Source: an uncultured virus (IMG/VR IMGVR_UViG_3300025411_000009)
Taxonomy: Duplodnaviria > Heunggongvirae > Uroviricota > Caudoviricetes
Reading direction: 5' to 3' (one strand)
Virus record (IMG/VR): IMGVR_UViG_3300025411_000009
Length of the DNA stretch: 64,000 bases
Of the stretch, positions 404 through 27,364 are shown in pieces. Made by a program: the position numbers and the translations under genes. A model generated the notes under the pieces. The model was given only the letters and a program-made list of their open reading frames with translations. It did not search any database and had not been told where the DNA came from. How positions within the stretch are numbered: position 1 is the stretch's first letter; the number at the start of each line of letters is the position of its first letter.

Positions 404-1773
404 AGTTTACCTGCTACAGTATTTTTCCAAATTGTTGAATTTGTGTCTGGTGTGACATATTCATTTGGAACACTTTCTTTTACAATTTCAATAATCATTT
501 TATAACCATCAACCTTAAATGTGTGTTTAAGTGCTGATATGAGATACTTGCCTGAGTAATACTTATCAAGCTCTTTTCCTTGAGTAGCAGGATCCATAGA
601 AACTAAATTAAAATTGATAACACTACCAACAGTAATAGACGGGTCTCCATCCATAAACAATTTAACTTTATTATAGTTTGTTAAAGATAATTGTGATGTT
701 CTTGTTGGAACATATTTTTCTAAAAAGATATCGTGTGAATAAGCATCAGGTTTAGAACCAATATATGGAATATCTTTTTGATTTTTATTTGTTGTTGCCA
801 TTTTAAGAACGGCTTGTGGTGTTTCATATACCTTATCACCAAATCTATTAGTTACTCCGTTAGTGATTGAATATTTGTTTAATTGTGTTGAGTTATTAAA
901 GTAAGTATCGTAATTAAAATCTACAATGTTCCATCTCAATAATAGAGGATCGATTGTGATTAGTCTATTCGCAAATACACCTGTGTTAATAGCATTAAGA
1001 GTATCAAAAGCATCAACAATTTGATATGAATTAACACCATAGAATTTTTGGTCTTGTGTTCCAGTTTTGTTATCTATATTTTTAGGTGCATAAGTGTATG
1101 TTCGTAAAGGGTCTTGCATGAATAGTGTTTGTAGTGAAAAGAAATGAAACCCTTGAGAGTCTTCAAATAACAACATATCTGAACCATAACTACCTGGTGT
1201 TGCTGATTGAGCATATGTTGATACCCAATTAATAGCTTCAAGTGGTTTAAAGTTTGGAACAATAAAACTATAAACACCTTGCGTTTCTTCTATATCTACT
1301 ACTTTATTATTTGGATCAACTTTAAGAAAGTTTGTTAATATATCAGTAATAATATCTGATATTTTTTTATCTTTATAAGATTTACTTACTTTGTATTGTT
1401 CAGAAAGAACTAACTCATCAGAACAAAAATTGATAACATAACCTTCTGTTGTTGAATTGCCTACGAGTTGTCTTGAAGATATTTTGTGAACACGGAATAT
1501 TAAATCATTTATAAAATCATCTTCCGAAGCTTTAGTGAATGATATACGAATATATTCATTACCAATCATATGCAACTTTTCAATAAGACCTTGTGCATCT
1601 GAAATCTGTAAATAACCAGAAACACAATTACTAAAGATGTCTTCAAAGTAAGTTAATTCAACAAGTGAATTTTTTAAATCAAATGAACCGCCTGATGTTA
1701 ATAATACAAGTGTTTTTAGATTATAGTCCTGAGCATACGTTACTCCAGGAGTTACAAGATTTGGATTTGCCAT
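400..1773 (-). CDS. Baseplate hub protein (gp27/GpD-like)
   Basis: 457 aa between gp53 and gp5; YFEDIFS...SG.LQISDA start and C-terminal YSGKYLISALKH motif. Confidence 0.7.
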   Translation of the reverse strand: MANPNLVTPGVTYAQDYNLKTLVLLTSGGSFDLKNSLVELTYFEDIFSNCVSGYLQISDAQGLIEKLHMIGNEYIRISFTKASEDDFINDLIFRVHKISSRQLVGNSTTEGYVINFCSDELVLSEQYKVSKSYKDKKISDIITDILTNFLKVDPNNKVVDIEETQGVYSFIVPNFKPLEAINWVSTYAQSATPGSYGSDMLLFEDSQGFHFFSLQTLFMQDPLRTYTYAPKNIDNKTGTQDQKFYGVNSYQIVDAFDTLNAINTGVFANRLITIDPLLLRWNIVDFNYDTYFNNSTQLNKYSITNGVTNRFGDKVYETPQAVLKMATTNKNQKDIPYIGSKPDAYSHDIFLEKYVPTRTSQLSLTNYNKVKLFMDGDPSITVGSVINFNLVSMDPATQGKELDKYYSGKYLISALKHTFKVDGYKMIIEIVKESVPNEYVTPDTNSTIWKNTVAGKL

Positions 1774-10042: not shown

Positions 10043-10927
10043 TTAATCTTCCATTGCTAAGTTCTCAAAATACTTCATATCATCATCATCTGAAATATCT
10101 GGTTCAATAGATGGTGCTGGTGTAGATTTAACTTGTTCTTTAATTTGTTCAACGGTTGTTTTAACTGCAACTGTTTCACCATTAAGACCTAACACCTTAT
10201 CTAACCTAGTTTTCAATGCATCATAAGATTTGAATTCAGATTCTTTTACTAAATCTTGTAAAGAATATTCTGATTTCCAGATTGTTTCTAACTTCTCATC
10301 ATTATCTGATAACGGTGATGCTGAATCAAATTCTGATTTATCATAGTTTTGGAAACCATCTACTTTACGAATCTTGAGTTTAAAGTTAGCACCTTTCCAT
10401 AAATCAAAAGGATTAATTGCTGTTTCATCTTCAAAGGCAGGATTCATAGCCTCTGTAATCTTATCAAAGATTTTTTTACCAAATCTGAATAACTTAATTT
10501 GGCCTTCATTCTCTGGATGTTTAGGATCAGATACGATATAAACATTAGCGATATAGTTTAACTTACGCTTTTGTTTACGAACCACATCTTTATTTGCTTC
10601 AATGCCAGAGTTCCATAGTGATGAATTATGTTCACAAACTGGACATTTTTGATTTGTTGTTGTAAGACAGTTATCAATGAACCAACCACCTGGTCCTTGG
10701 AAACCGTGTGAGAATACTTTTACCCAAGGCAAAGCATCTTCACCATCTTTTTCTGATGCAGGTAGAAAACGGATTGTTGCCATGCCGTTGCCTGCTTTAT
10801 CTACTTCAGGACGCCAGAAATTATCTTGCTTTTCTGAACCACCTTCTGTATTTGTATTGATTGCCTCGATAGCTTTTGATAGTTTATCAAGATTGCCTGA
10901 TTGGCGTTTTAGATTTGCAAAACTCAT
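10043..10927 (-). CDS. gp32: Single-stranded DNA binding protein gp32
   Basis: FWRPEVDKAGNGMATIRFLP, HGFQGPGGW, CPVCE, RFGKKIFDKI, acidic tail. Confidence 0.97.
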   Translation of the reverse strand: MSFANLKRQSGNLDKLSKAIEAINTNTEGGSEKQDNFWRPEVDKAGNGMATIRFLPASEKDGEDALPWVKVFSHGFQGPGGWFIDNCLTTTNQKCPVCEHNSSLWNSGIEANKDVVRKQKRKLNYIANVYIVSDPKHPENEGQIKLFRFGKKIFDKITEAMNPAFEDETAINPFDLWKGANFKLKIRKVDGFQNYDKSEFDSASPLSDNDEKLETIWKSEYSLQDLVKESEFKSYDALKTRLDKVLGLNGETVAVKTTVEQIKEQVKSTPAPSIEPDISDDDDMKYFENLAMED

Positions 10928-11001
10928 ATTATTACCTTTCATATAAACGGAATATTAACGGAATATAACTTCTTATCCACAAACTACTCATAACCATACT
11001 T

Positions 11002-22990: not shown

Positions 22991-23764
22991 TTATACTTCT
23001 ATATATTTCAATTTAAATAGGTCATGTTGATATTCTTTTGGATAAGCTCTTGGGTTACAAATCACTCTTGTTTCACTAATTGTATAATCGAAAGGATCGT
23101 GAGTGTGCCCATGAACCCATAACTTAACATCTTTAAATAAGTTCATAAGATAATCCAGATTACTATGAAAACCACCGTTCATTATGCTGTCATTTTCATA
23201 TCGTGGGTGAACAGAATTACGGCTAGGTGAATGGTGTGTTATAACAACTTTTTTACCTGATAAACTTTCAAGCATTGTTGCAATAAAATCTATACTCTTA
23301 TTATGTTCTTTAACTGATTGTTCAGGTGAATACTTAATATAATTTTCACCATCAAAGTATTTAATAATTCTCCAATCAGGCATTGAAGGCTTAATTAATT
23401 CCATTGTATACTTATCAGAATTATTCATATTAGTCCACATGGTTGAACCAATAAAATTAATATCACCAATTTTGGCCGCTTGATTATTAAGAACACGAAT
23501 ATTATCCAAGTGTTTTAACTTATCTGTGATATCTTTTACCGTGTCATTGTATAGATAATTATAATGCTCGTGATTACCAACCACATATACAATATCTCTA
23601 AACTTTTTTGATATATCTTCAAAAAAATCTATTTTAAAATGCTTTGCTGAACATATATCGCCAGCTAAAATCAATACATCAGCATTCTCATCATTATTTA
23701 ATGTGAGGTCTCTATGTTCTAAATGTAAATCACTTGCAATCGCTAACTTCACAATGTTTTCCAA
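22991..23764 (-). CDS. Metallophosphoesterase (calcineurin-like)
   Basis: SDLHLE, AGDI, GNHEHY, THHSP, HGHTH. Confidence 0.9.
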   Translation of the reverse strand: MENIVKLAIASDLHLEHRDLTLNNDENADVLILAGDICSAKHFKIDFFEDISKKFRDIVYVVGNHEHYNYLYNDTVKDITDKLKHLDNIRVLNNQAAKIGDINFIGSTMWTNMNNSDKYTMELIKPSMPDWRIIKYFDGENYIKYSPEQSVKEHNKSIDFIATMLESLSGKKVVITHHSPSRNSVHPRYENDSIMNGGFHSNLDYLMNLFKDVKLWVHGHTHDPFDYTISETRVICNPRAYPKEYQHDLFKLKYIEV

Positions 23765-23773
23765 TTCTATTAT

Positions 23774-23928
23774 TAGCCAATAAGATATCGGGCAGTATTT
23801 AGCCGCCCTCCTGCCAAGTATCGCAGAGATTGCTTACCAAACTCGGTAGTCCAATTGGCTCGTTACGGTCGATTAACTCGATCCAGTCTGCTCTGGTTAC
23901 AGGCCTTAACCTACCTGTAATTAGGTTA
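23774..23928 (-). ncRNA. Putative structured RNA: pseudoknot plus multi-stem domain
   Basis: GC-rich intergenic; TAACCTA/TAGGTTA and TTACAGG/CCTGTAA interleaved; AGCCAAT/ATTGGCT enclosing hairpins. Confidence 0.55.
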
Positions 23929-24120
23929 TTTTTTGATTGTATAGTTTTTAAATATACTGATTAGAATTGATACTGCTAACCAATTTCGCCATGTATAATC
24001 AATATACAAGGCAGGAAAGATTGTATCCCATGCCCATATAACAACCAATGACCAACATAAGCATAATACTACTAATACTACTGCTGCTGTTATTGCCAAT
24101 GCCCATTCTATATCTTTCAT
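23926..24120 (-). CDS. Small membrane protein
   Basis: MKDIEWALAITAAVVLVVLCLCW...; two hydrophobic segments. Confidence 0.6.
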   Translation of the reverse strand: MKDIEWALAITAAVVLVVLCLCWSLVVIWAWDTIFPALYIDYTWRNWLAVSILISIFKNYTIKK

Positions 24121-24656
24121 TATTGATCCTCCGCCATCATTTCTTTCCAATCCTCAGCTATTTGTTCTAGATTGAAATCTTCAACCAGATGCTGAGGTAT
24201 ATTACTCAAGTCCTCATAATCAAGTTCATACGATGCGTCCTGACCGTCATAGTATTCACCGACAAATGACATACCTTCTTCAATGTATGTAGCAGAAACA
24301 TCCCAGCCATGTTCAAACATCCAATGATATAAGTTCGTTGGTGGTGCCCATGCCGTTTCACAACTAAAGGTTATGGTGTCACCTTCTCTACGCCAATTAT
24401 TAGCATCGGCATTCCATTTTGTTCCCCAATTACTGACTGACCAGCTATACCAATCAGGTGCACCATACTTCTCTTGCATCTCAGCGGCTAATGCCTCATT
24501 ACGGTTAGGTGATTCTACATCAACCAATTCTTGTGGGCATGGCATAAAGAAATCAAACCAATTCTTGCCTTCACCATTCTTTAGAAAAGTTTCTAACCTG
24601 TCCATCTTTTCAGGTGTTGCTGTAATGCTAACACTATTTGAGCACCAATTTGGCAT
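24120..24656 (-). CDS. YubB/DUF1281 ferredoxin-like domain protein
   Basis: MPNWCSN...DWYSWSVSNWGTKWNA...ETAWAPP. Confidence 0.75.
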   Translation of the reverse strand: MPNWCSNSVSITATPEKMDRLETFLKNGEGKNWFDFFMPCPQELVDVESPNRNEALAAEMQEKYGAPDWYSWSVSNWGTKWNADANNWRREGDTITFSCETAWAPPTNLYHWMFEHGWDVSATYIEEGMSFVGEYYDGQDASYELDYEDLSNIPQHLVEDFNLEQIAEDWKEMMAEDQ

Positions 24657-25083: not shown

Positions 25084-25190
25084 ATTTTTAAAGCACACTC
25101 GGCATTAAGCCTTTGCTACCAAGAAATTGGATTGGAATGTGCTTTAAAAATGGCAGTTTCTTTAATGACTGAGCTGCCAAAAGTCTTAAC
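25084..25190 (-). ncRNA. Pseudoknot plus long stem with branched apex (possible RNase III site)
   Basis: GACT/AGTC interleaved with TGGCAG/CTGCCA; then ATTTTTAAAGCACATTC/GAGTGTGCTTTAAAAAT stem enclosing two hairpins. Confidence 0.55.
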
Positions 25191-25566: not shown

Positions 25567-25661
25567 AATATAATACTCCTCAAAATTAATAATAAACTAC
25601 TCATACTACAATGTACCATTATACACTTTCCACTATAAAAGTCAAGCATTATTTTGGTACT

Positions 25662-27181
25662 TTACCTCATGTATACCGAAAATCTATCGGCAAACATTCT
25701 TACGCAATCTTGGTACCTTTGGTTAGGCGACCTTCGATCCAACGGGTTAGTTCTGCTACCTCTGAACCTCACCCGAATTTTTTTACCTTGAGATTTGAAA
25801 TAAGCCCTTACCTCATCCAATCGGCGTATTGGTATATTCTTATAACGGGCTTCTTCACCTTCTACTCTAAATGGTTTTAAGTTCATATTCACTCCTATGG
25901 TCTATAATAAGAATTAGTCCAATTGCCTTCGGGTTCTTCCTCGTAAGCAAGCGCCTGTATAATATCGTCAAGCACTTCCAACTTGTCCATTGGCATTCTA
26001 TCACCGTTTAAAAATATCTCACTTCTAACCAGTTCTAAAATAGTCTTTACCTCAACCTCGGTTAGTTCTATCTTACGAAGCGAACCGTCATCCAAGTTTC
26101 TGGTCTCACCAGTTCTAGTATTCAATGAAAACGCTACCATACTTACCTCCCTAATTTCAATACAACCATTATATCACATCCATACCAAAAGTCAAGCATT
26201 ATTTAGCCTATTCGGTATCGATCCATACTCTACCAAAAATCAATTCGCCACCGTTCTTTTTAATAACATAGAAGTCATTAGGAAAATCAATGATATTGCC
26301 TAAGTCCTCACGGATTTCGTCCTGATTGATATCCTCAACCTTGATACAACCGATTGAACCAGAATCCACAGCATATTCACGACCTTCTTGGTCATTGTAA
26401 ACACCATCACCATAAGCTGTACCAAAGATAGCAAACTTACGACCATCTTTTAATGAAAATACACCTTCGCCTGGGTCACCATTGGTTGGATCGAACATTA
26501 TATTACATGCTTCGTCCCATTCATTGTGCATAACATAGCATAGGTCTCCCACATAATACTTACCTGCCGGCATCTTATCAACTATCATAATCAAATAACC
26601 TTCCTATCTTATTAACGATATCCTCATTATAATAATCTGGATCAATGTTCCGTATAGCATAAAACATATACTCCAACTCATCATAATCCAATTGAACCGT
26701 TACCTCTGGTGCATCAGTAGATAACCTCTTTACCTCAAAAATAGTCTTACCAGTCATATTACTTTACCTCACTTATTATTAATGTTACCATTATATCATA
26801 TTTGGATAGAATGTCAAGCATTATTTGGATACTTTTACCTCATTAAAACCTGTATAGTACCTCAATAGTCTTACCTCAAGTACCTCAATGATACCTCACG
26901 GACTTAGCGAGGCGCCTGCGTGTAATACCTCGCCATGGCCTTCGCTGGCCAGTGCTCCTGTATTGGTGTTAGTTTCTCAGCACGATACCGAAAGTTCCAG
27001 AGGTATCCTGAGGAACTTCCGAGCACCTCTGATATTATTTTGTGATAGCCTTTACATATTCCTTGAAGCCTGCTACTGCTGACTTCTTATCACAAAAATA
27101 GAAGCGCATGGATACCAATTGATTATTAATGATATCGGACACCTCTATAACACCCGTATTTGGGTTCCGTGTTATAGTCAT
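25662..27181 (-). other. Early hypothetical ORFs 25662-25892, 25895-26140, 26208-26594, 26578-26757, 27035-27181
   Basis: Each cassette lies downstream of a promoter with an RBS; 26208-26594 has the YYVGDLCYV...GTAYGDG...VDSGSIG motif common in phages. Confidence 0.7.
26731..26898 (-). repeat. TGAGGTA direct-repeat cluster (7 copies)
   Basis: Plus-strand TACCTCA at 26731, 26765, 26836, 26858, 26872, 26881, 26892. Confidence 0.85.
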
Positions 27182-27364
27182 TCTTATCTCCTTATTATTA
27201 AACTGCTATTATACATGAAATGGCAAAAATGTCAAGCACTTTCGAGCGGACTATACTATAAGAATAGCACGCAACCTCTGCTCTCCTCTCCAACCGGTAA
27301 ATACCATTATACACGATCCAATAAAAAAGTCAAGCACTTTTTGGGGTGCCTGACTTCTATTTGA

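Follow-up and report, generated by a model that had tools for sequence, protein, structure and literature searches.

The locus and its neighbors

The window analyzed here is the first 64 kb (64,000 nt) of a 124.9-kb linear virus record that is 74% complete. It carries T4-like core genes, named from their translations, including a presumably gp32-like ORF (10043–10942) with a leader of its own. The capsid protein of the phage is 83–89% identical to those of uncultured phages, with at most 66% identity to those of cultured ones, and the listed sequencing runs that contain the phage sequence (24, none of them an RNA run) are freshwater and lake metagenomes.

The element of interest is an RNA of ~160 nt on the minus strand (23770–23928; index 1 of the RNA corresponds to position 23928), flanked by genes on the same strand. 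Upstream, an ORF encodes a hydrophobic 64-aa protein (23926–24120) for which a search found its own cluster alone; the TAA stop codon of this ORF constitutes the first 3 nt of the RNA. Downstream, a calcineurin-like metallophosphoesterase (22991–23752; PF00149, phrog_1649) most likely starts at the GTG at 23752, the residue at which its homologs also begin, and the RNA ends ~18 nt ahead of this codon. A −10-like hexamer, TACAAT (23936–23941, minus strand), is located within the upstream gene, 7 nt ahead of the start of the RNA, but is not accompanied by a −35 box and may be due to chance. The nearest strong promoters lie ~1.7–2.3 kb upstream and, because no full promoter directly precedes the RNA in the window, it may remain part of an mRNA there. 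On the same strand, several near-identical strong promoters (TTGAC-16/17-TATAAT) precede small early genes at 25618–27340, and at 25100–25180 a hairpin with a 17-nt loop and a U run follows a 124-aa gene, with a GC-richer spacer leading to a 146-aa gene.

A sequence-only reading of this DNA had proposed a structured RNA of about 155 nt at this site and had suggested comparison with Rfam and covariation among homologs as checks. All the complementary words that it quoted are present on the minus strand. The element extends ~4–7 nt further in the 3′ direction than it had stated, through a weak last hairpin, to ~23770. Whole-strand folding energies do not discriminate between the two strands of the element; the G.U-forming changes in strain alleles favor the minus strand. 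The minimum free energy of the 155-mer has a z-score of −1.97 (6 of 200 shuffled sequences fold equally well), and the GC content of the element is 47% against 34% contig-wide, a level reached by 2% of windows. The RNA is a single-copy element, with no similar unit elsewhere in the contig.

In the Rfam comparison, nothing in the window reached the gathering score and sub-threshold matches appeared only at E ≤ 10; searches over the RNA in its three homologs (L030, L036 and L353, described below) likewise yielded no family, tRNAs being the only matches, with sub-threshold matches for L030 and L353 only at E ≤ 10. ARAGORN detects no tRNA or tmRNA at the element, which has neither an acceptor stem with a T arm nor a conserved tag frame, the frame within it not being conserved.

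Homologs in distant phages

The window and the strain variant L001 served to build a covariance model, R1, which included stem 2 of the 5′ pseudoknot, hairpins H1–H3 and two 3′ hairpins, and left out stem 1. Among 77 loci fetched via the upstream 178-aa protein, R1 detected one homolog (L353, 717–875; E = 5e-8), and among 83 loci fetched via the phosphoesterase, two at E < 0.01, namely L030 (983–1154; E = 5e-5) and L036 (2083–2250; E = 1e-3), the next match having an E-value of 3.3. The identity of the core is 49–68% between lineages and 96% between L030 and L036. The size and completeness of the records suggest phages of ~350 kb in the case of L030 and L036 and ~200 kb in the case of L353.

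In the covariation set, which consists of five sequences from three lineages in an alignment that, stem 1 aside, was fitted to the model, 97.8% of the 135 cells pair, and 17 of the 27 core pairs are changed on both sides, including pairs of stem 1. None of the 500 shuffles reached the observed covariation, and controls with slid partners gave 24–45%. The earlier claim of a novel structured ncRNA is borne out by this covariation in distant phages together with the absence of an Rfam match, and there is very little doubt that the element is a real structured ncRNA. Its conservation is shown in T4-like and jumbo phages, in three unrelated gene contexts.

The distribution of the RNA is patchy. A model designated R2 matched 3 of 179 other viral records (3/80, 0/49 and 0/50), none of 9 cultured phages (with the positive control recovered) and none of 151 cellular genomes; the whole-record negatives are soft because a whole-record R1 search missed two known homologs, and most of the records are fragments. 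A search of eight tRNA-rich loci with filters off gave nothing under an E-value of 1, and a blastn comparison of the window, L030 and L353 elements with 50,697 cultured phage records gave no meaningful match. DNA pattern scans of viral contigs returned near-identical copies only (3/3, 3/22, 3/14 and 3/10 matches), and a scan of metagenome contigs returned a near-identical copy in 1 of 118 matches, with 37 of the 64 parts scanned. Among the loci retrieved, six (L135, L138, L171, L180, L222 and L223) contain hammerhead-like cores on the strand opposite to the pattern match, unrelated to the RNA described here. Another locus (L095/L096, 1501–1526) shows compact interleaved stems of 5 + 5 bp followed by a purine-rich tract, with no model match in that record. 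No description of the present RNA was found in the literature. A catalog of 10,006 viral candidate RNAs has been compiled (Fremin et al. 2023, PMC10690425); six short motifs of the RNA were not found in the searched part of its supplement, so the RNA may still be among these candidates.

The 5′ pseudoknot

The RNA begins with an H-type pseudoknot, PK1 (23897–23928, minus strand; index 1–32), that belongs to the CPK1 type and shows covariation in both stems. Stem 1 pairs 23926–23922 with 23913–23909, loop 1 is the single residue A23921, and stem 2 pairs 23920–23914 with 23903–23897. The sequence-only reading had described two interleaved complementarities of 7 bp each. The homologs confirm stem 2, which is 6–7 bp long across them, and the single-A loop 1 (index 8, invariant), but stem 1 is conserved at only 4–5 bp, which would be easier to reconcile with the short loop 3 than a stem of 7 bp. 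The 124.9-kb contig contains no second 7 + 7 complementarity of this kind, and none of six block-shuffled genomes contains one; the expectation under a loose geometry is ~0.27 per genome before restriction to intergenic regions. Other compact pseudoknot geometries with 5–6-bp stems are found in the contig at 81451–81479, 32032–32056 and 12538–12570, at about the shuffle level.

In the five-sequence alignment, three of the five stem 1 pairs and three of the seven stem 2 pairs are changed on both sides, and a strain allele adds a U-A to C-G change. Because stem 1 was absent from R1, its covariation is an independent check of the knot. Members of the CPK1 family have a loop 1 of 1–2 nt, a stem 2 of 6–7 bp and no nucleotide between the stems (PMC11262651); loop 1 and stem 2 of PK1 are within these limits and both stems covary, so the gene 32-type geometry recognized in the initial reading is upheld.

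A revised fold downstream of PK1

Downstream of PK1, the order of the helices is H1 (index 33–46), H2 (48–60), the outer stem of H3 (70–74 with 89–93), an A-rich linker, H5 (121–139) and H6 (~146–159), all on the minus strand. The two inner hairpins that had been read after the 5′ knot are confirmed by the homologs: H1 (23883–23896), supported by covariation and by the strain allele, the loop of which (23891–23887) is the 5′ strand of a predicted second pseudoknot, PK2, and H2 (23869–23881), which has a variable loop and all four pairs changed on both sides. In H3 (23836–23859; outer stem 23859–23855 with 23840–23836), six of the eight outer and inner pairs are changed on both sides, and the strain allele replaces A-U with C-G. 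The GC-rich H5 (23790–23808) shows a G.U to G-C change in both L001 and the strain allele, with a hairpin at the same place in L030 and L036. The terminal hairpin H6 (23770–23783) is weak and AU-rich in the window, and has 6 bp with a 5-nt loop in the homologs.

The rest of the originally proposed 3′ domain fared less well. Its outer stem, AGCCAAT/ATTGGCT, loses two internal pairs in the strain allele, where two bases are altered with no change of partner, and only 70% of its cells are paired, in a 3′ region where the alignment is poor; of the hairpins that this stem would enclose, TACC/GGTA is broken in L001 and GCA/TGC in the strain allele. Across the three 3′ helices of that proposal, 70–80% of the cells are paired, compared with 61.5% in shuffles, in the less reliable part of the alignment. 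In the present model, the multibranch domain is replaced by one hairpin and two predicted pseudoknots, giving a predicted fold of three knots.

The putative PK2 joins index 38–42, in the H1 loop, to 102–106 (23823–23827). The window and L353 each have five pairs here, for the most part of different sequence (shuffle p = 0.02 and 0.008, respectively). Non-cognate pairing is weaker, at +0.4 and −5.1 kcal/mol compared with −6.9 and −7.2 kcal/mol for the cognate strands, and the strain allele contains two compensatory changes, by hand realignment. In L030 and L036, PK2 is reduced to a G-rich loop opposite a C run (shuffle p = 0.93). The predicted PK3 joins index 80–88 (23849–23841) to 110–118 (23811–23819) and would stack coaxially, with no spacer, on the outer stem of H3; each of the four lineages has 8–10 such pairs (shuffle p = 0.03–0.08 per lineage), interrupted by a single A.C mismatch in the window and by bulges in the homologs. 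The strand 23849–23841, which H3 encloses, can form either the 5′ strand of PK3 or part of a short, 3-bp inner hairpin (75–77 with 84–86) that also covaries and excludes part of PK3; this hairpin may be an intermediate of folding or serve as a switch. A number of bases in loops and junctions do not vary between lineages, and such invariant unpaired bases fit a catalytic or ligand-binding core as well as a protein-binding site. Overall, the element represents a family of phage ncRNAs, so far uncatalogued, in which the 5′ pseudoknot is well supported and the three-knot core is predicted.

Strain alleles

Between the L001 contig and the window, 5 of 3024 nt differ, and three of these five differences are inside the element (p ~0.001). 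A second allele in lake contigs carries 21 substitutions and five single-base indels, all within 23794–23919, with ~24 changes in 2037 nt of its flanks, a count that assumes that run X12 carries the same allele. By hand reading, the changes touch 10 helix pairs, of which eight remain paired: five are changed on both sides (10–31, 51–57, 74–89, 39–105 and 40–104, three of them dependent on a hand realignment of the gaps placed by the tool) and three on one side with pairing kept (9–32, 33–46 and 125–135). The two pairs that break, 48–60 and 42–102, are at helix ends. Both alleles are present in one run (X13, records 4 and 5).

Strain differences also cluster at 23077–23099 (8 in 23 nt) and 24150–24204 (6 in 55 nt) of the window. 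These two clusters show mosaic recombination in the phage population, and the divergent tract in the element could be a neutral recombination patch.

Genomic contexts of the family

The homologs reside in settings that differ from each other and from the window. In L353, which has no tRNA nearby, the RNA begins 6 nt after TTGACA-17-TACAAT, a sigma70 promoter with 11 of 12 matches, and heads a predicted transcript with genes behind it. In L036, it begins 3 nt after the CCA of a tRNA-Pro and ends ~15 nt before a tRNA-Tyr. In L030, it is located ~100 nt after a tRNA-Pro, within a cluster of 25 tRNAs. The intervening segment in L030 (885–982, plus strand) is a GC-rich spacer with two hairpins (−30.8 kcal/mol) that is absent in L036 and possibly represents another small RNA module. 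Directly behind the L030 homolog (1156–1209, plus strand), still inside this jumbo-phage tRNA cluster, there is a SAM-II-like riboswitch match (RF01726; 17.9 bits, E = 0.6, below the gathering score) that covers the ribosome site of an ORF of ~20 codons.

No gene downstream of the RNA is common to the lineages: the window has the phosphoesterase, another lineage an ORF of unknown function, and L036 the tRNA-Tyr. Conversely, phosphoesterase homologs in the related loci checked have no such RNA directly upstream, so the phosphoesterase is a neighbor rather than a conserved partner. These two observations make it unlikely that the RNA acts in cis on one particular gene, and the earlier suggestion of a riboswitch, if taken as a leader of the phosphoesterase, is not supported. 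The simplest reading common to all contexts would be release as a free RNA, by a transcription start or by tRNA processing. Since the homologs sit within a tRNA cluster, between tRNAs or at a sigma70-type transcript start, the RNA is probably a stand-alone molecule rather than a cis-acting one.

Possible functions of the RNA

Our preferred, albeit tentative, reading, to which we assign clearly less than an even chance, is that the RNA is a trans-acting, stable decoy that would engage a host RNA-binding protein, for example an anti-phage nuclease, by its shape. It would be made from its own promoter, as in L353, or cut from tRNA or early polycistronic transcripts, as in L036, L030 and the window; the 5′-terminal pseudoknot would shield it from decay; and the host protein would be tied up by the compact fold much as ToxN is by pseudo-ToxI. 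Four considerations favor this role: sequence turnover in the element greatly exceeds that in the adjacent genes, yet the fold persists; both alleles are found together in a single run; the distribution of the RNA is patchy; and phage-encoded pseudoknot RNAs that act as decoys have a precedent (PMC3475682). For each of these arguments there is also a more mundane explanation, for instance mosaic recombination or records that are incomplete, which is why our confidence stays at this level. A further point against the decoy role is that type III antitoxins and the RNAs that mimic them are tandem repeats, whereas this RNA is not.

Two other possibilities are each roughly half as probable as the decoy. 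The first is a ribozyme of a new class, self-cleaving or processing, that would cut polycistronic phage transcripts, similarly to theta ribozymes at tRNA 3′ ends. The L036 RNA starts 3 nt after the tRNA CCA, inside the ±5 nt of the tRNA end by which tRNA-associated theta ribozymes are defined (PMC10879173), the window RNA starts at a stop codon, and a compact fold of multiple pseudoknots with invariant unpaired bases is compatible with such activity. However, the L353 RNA begins at a predicted transcription start, where cleavage at the 5′ end would be of little use, and the L030 RNA is ~100 nt away from the tRNA. Furthermore, the window, L030 and L353 have no match to an Rfam ribozyme at E ≤ 10, and the core words of known classes are absent.

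The second is a portable cis element, either a 5′ stabilizer or a translational operator bound by a protein, like the leader pseudoknot of T4 gene 32. The CPK1 geometry of PK1 agrees with this possibility, as do the location of the window RNA ~18 nt before the GTG and that of the L353 RNA at the head of a transcript with genes. Against it, the L036 RNA is followed by a tRNA-Tyr rather than a gene, the downstream genes are unrelated, and the other phosphoesterase genes checked lack the RNA upstream. The gene 32 operator also needs an unstructured A+U-rich run 3′ of the knot (PMC3014915), whereas here the sequence 3′ of the knot is 42–50% AU and structured.

A metabolite-sensing riboswitch that toggles between PK3 and the inner hairpin of H3 is distinctly improbable. 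The two mutually exclusive pairings are both supported and the loop bases are invariant, but the lineages share no regulated gene, neither a terminator nor a platform sequestering the Shine–Dalgarno sequence is conserved, and the L036 RNA is followed by a tRNA.

The chance that the RNA is antisense to the 5′ end of a phage tRNA-Leu is very slight. The segment 23842–23859 (index 70–87) is the exact reverse complement of positions 3–20 of several short-arm phage tRNA-Leu genes, and such tRNAs account for five of the seven non-self pattern matches. The match is nevertheless lost in L353, L030 and L036 (the best match against 184 tRNAs is only 9–11 nt), the bases involved are engaged in conserved intramolecular helices, and a tRNA is found in only 1 of 11 GTDB matches. 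The homologs thus essentially refute this reading for the family, and the complementarity in the window is treated as a coincidence. Phage-type tRNA-Leu genes in L247, L249, L250, L252, L254 and L261 are only 75–78 nt long, with no long variable arm and with near-identical 5′ ends.

A small protein, a frameshift extension of the upstream gene (a 41–42-codon frame from AAA AAA UAA) or a tmRNA-like message domain is practically excluded, since the open frame that spans the element in the window, which the sequence-only reading had named as the potential refutation of an ncRNA should it prove to be a conserved protein, has no ATG, GTG or TTG start, is shifted (+2, then −3) in the strain allele and is interrupted by stops in the equivalent frames of homologs, two of which have no gene directly upstream, so that the protein is refuted and the ncRNA stands.

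In its broadest form, the proposal is that the element is the founding member of a new functional class of RNAs in large phages: a triple-pseudoknot RNA that moves among tRNA arrays, promoters of its own and gene junctions, swaps alleles within one lake population, and either jams a host anti-phage nuclease by its shape or represents a new self-cleaving ribozyme fold. The odds of this composite statement appear slightly below even. If true, a shape-based RNA decoy against bacterial defense or a new ribozyme fold would be a rare find. The family offers a small example that can be synthesized, with a fold defined by covariation, naturally occurring pairs of alleles and three different contexts.

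Comparison with known systems

The closest parallels by location are RNAC (species 1, 139 nt) and RNAD (species 2, 119 nt) of T4, stable small non-tRNA RNAs in the phage tRNA region, the roles of which are unknown (PMC3014915, PMC9697503). The RNA described here is in a tRNA region in L030 and L036, but in the window and L353 it is found outside tRNA clusters, and searches with R2 of the T4 tRNA region (L430) and of the whole T4 genome (NC_000866) gave no match, that is, no homology to RNAC or RNAD.

By the geometry of the 5′ knot, the RNA resembles the pseudoknot of the T2 and T4 gene 32 mRNA, with a 1-nt loop 1, a stem 2 of 6–7 bp and abutting stems (PMC11262651). It is not located upstream of gene 32, though, and its knot is followed by a conserved folded domain of 130 nt in place of an A+U-rich run. 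The absence of that run and the identity of what lies downstream (phosphoesterase, unknown ORF and tRNA-Tyr) rule out a gene 32 translational operator.

Theta (HDV-like) ribozymes share with the L036 RNA the position directly behind a phage tRNA 3′ end; in one of the four contexts, no more than 5 nt separate the 5′ end of the RNA from a tRNA 3′ end. The order of the helices and the size of ~160 nt differ, and the theta/HDV-like fold, a nested double pseudoknot with a catalytic C in J4/2, was rejected given this helix order and the lack of such an Rfam match at E ≤ 10 for the window, L030 and L353. The intergenic IRES of dicistroviruses is a triple-pseudoknot RNA of similar size (10.1101/2021.01.28.428736), a likeness that concerns the knot count only; the RNA described here is not followed by a conserved reading frame, and in L036 the next feature is a tRNA.

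With respect to the proposed mechanism, the model is provided by type III antitoxins and, specifically, pseudo-ToxI of phage phiTE, a phage-encoded pseudoknot RNA that acts by its shape on a host defense protein (PMC3475682). Those RNAs consist of tandem 36-nt repeats, whereas the present RNA, with no Rfam match, contains three dissimilar knots within a single unit that is not repeated.
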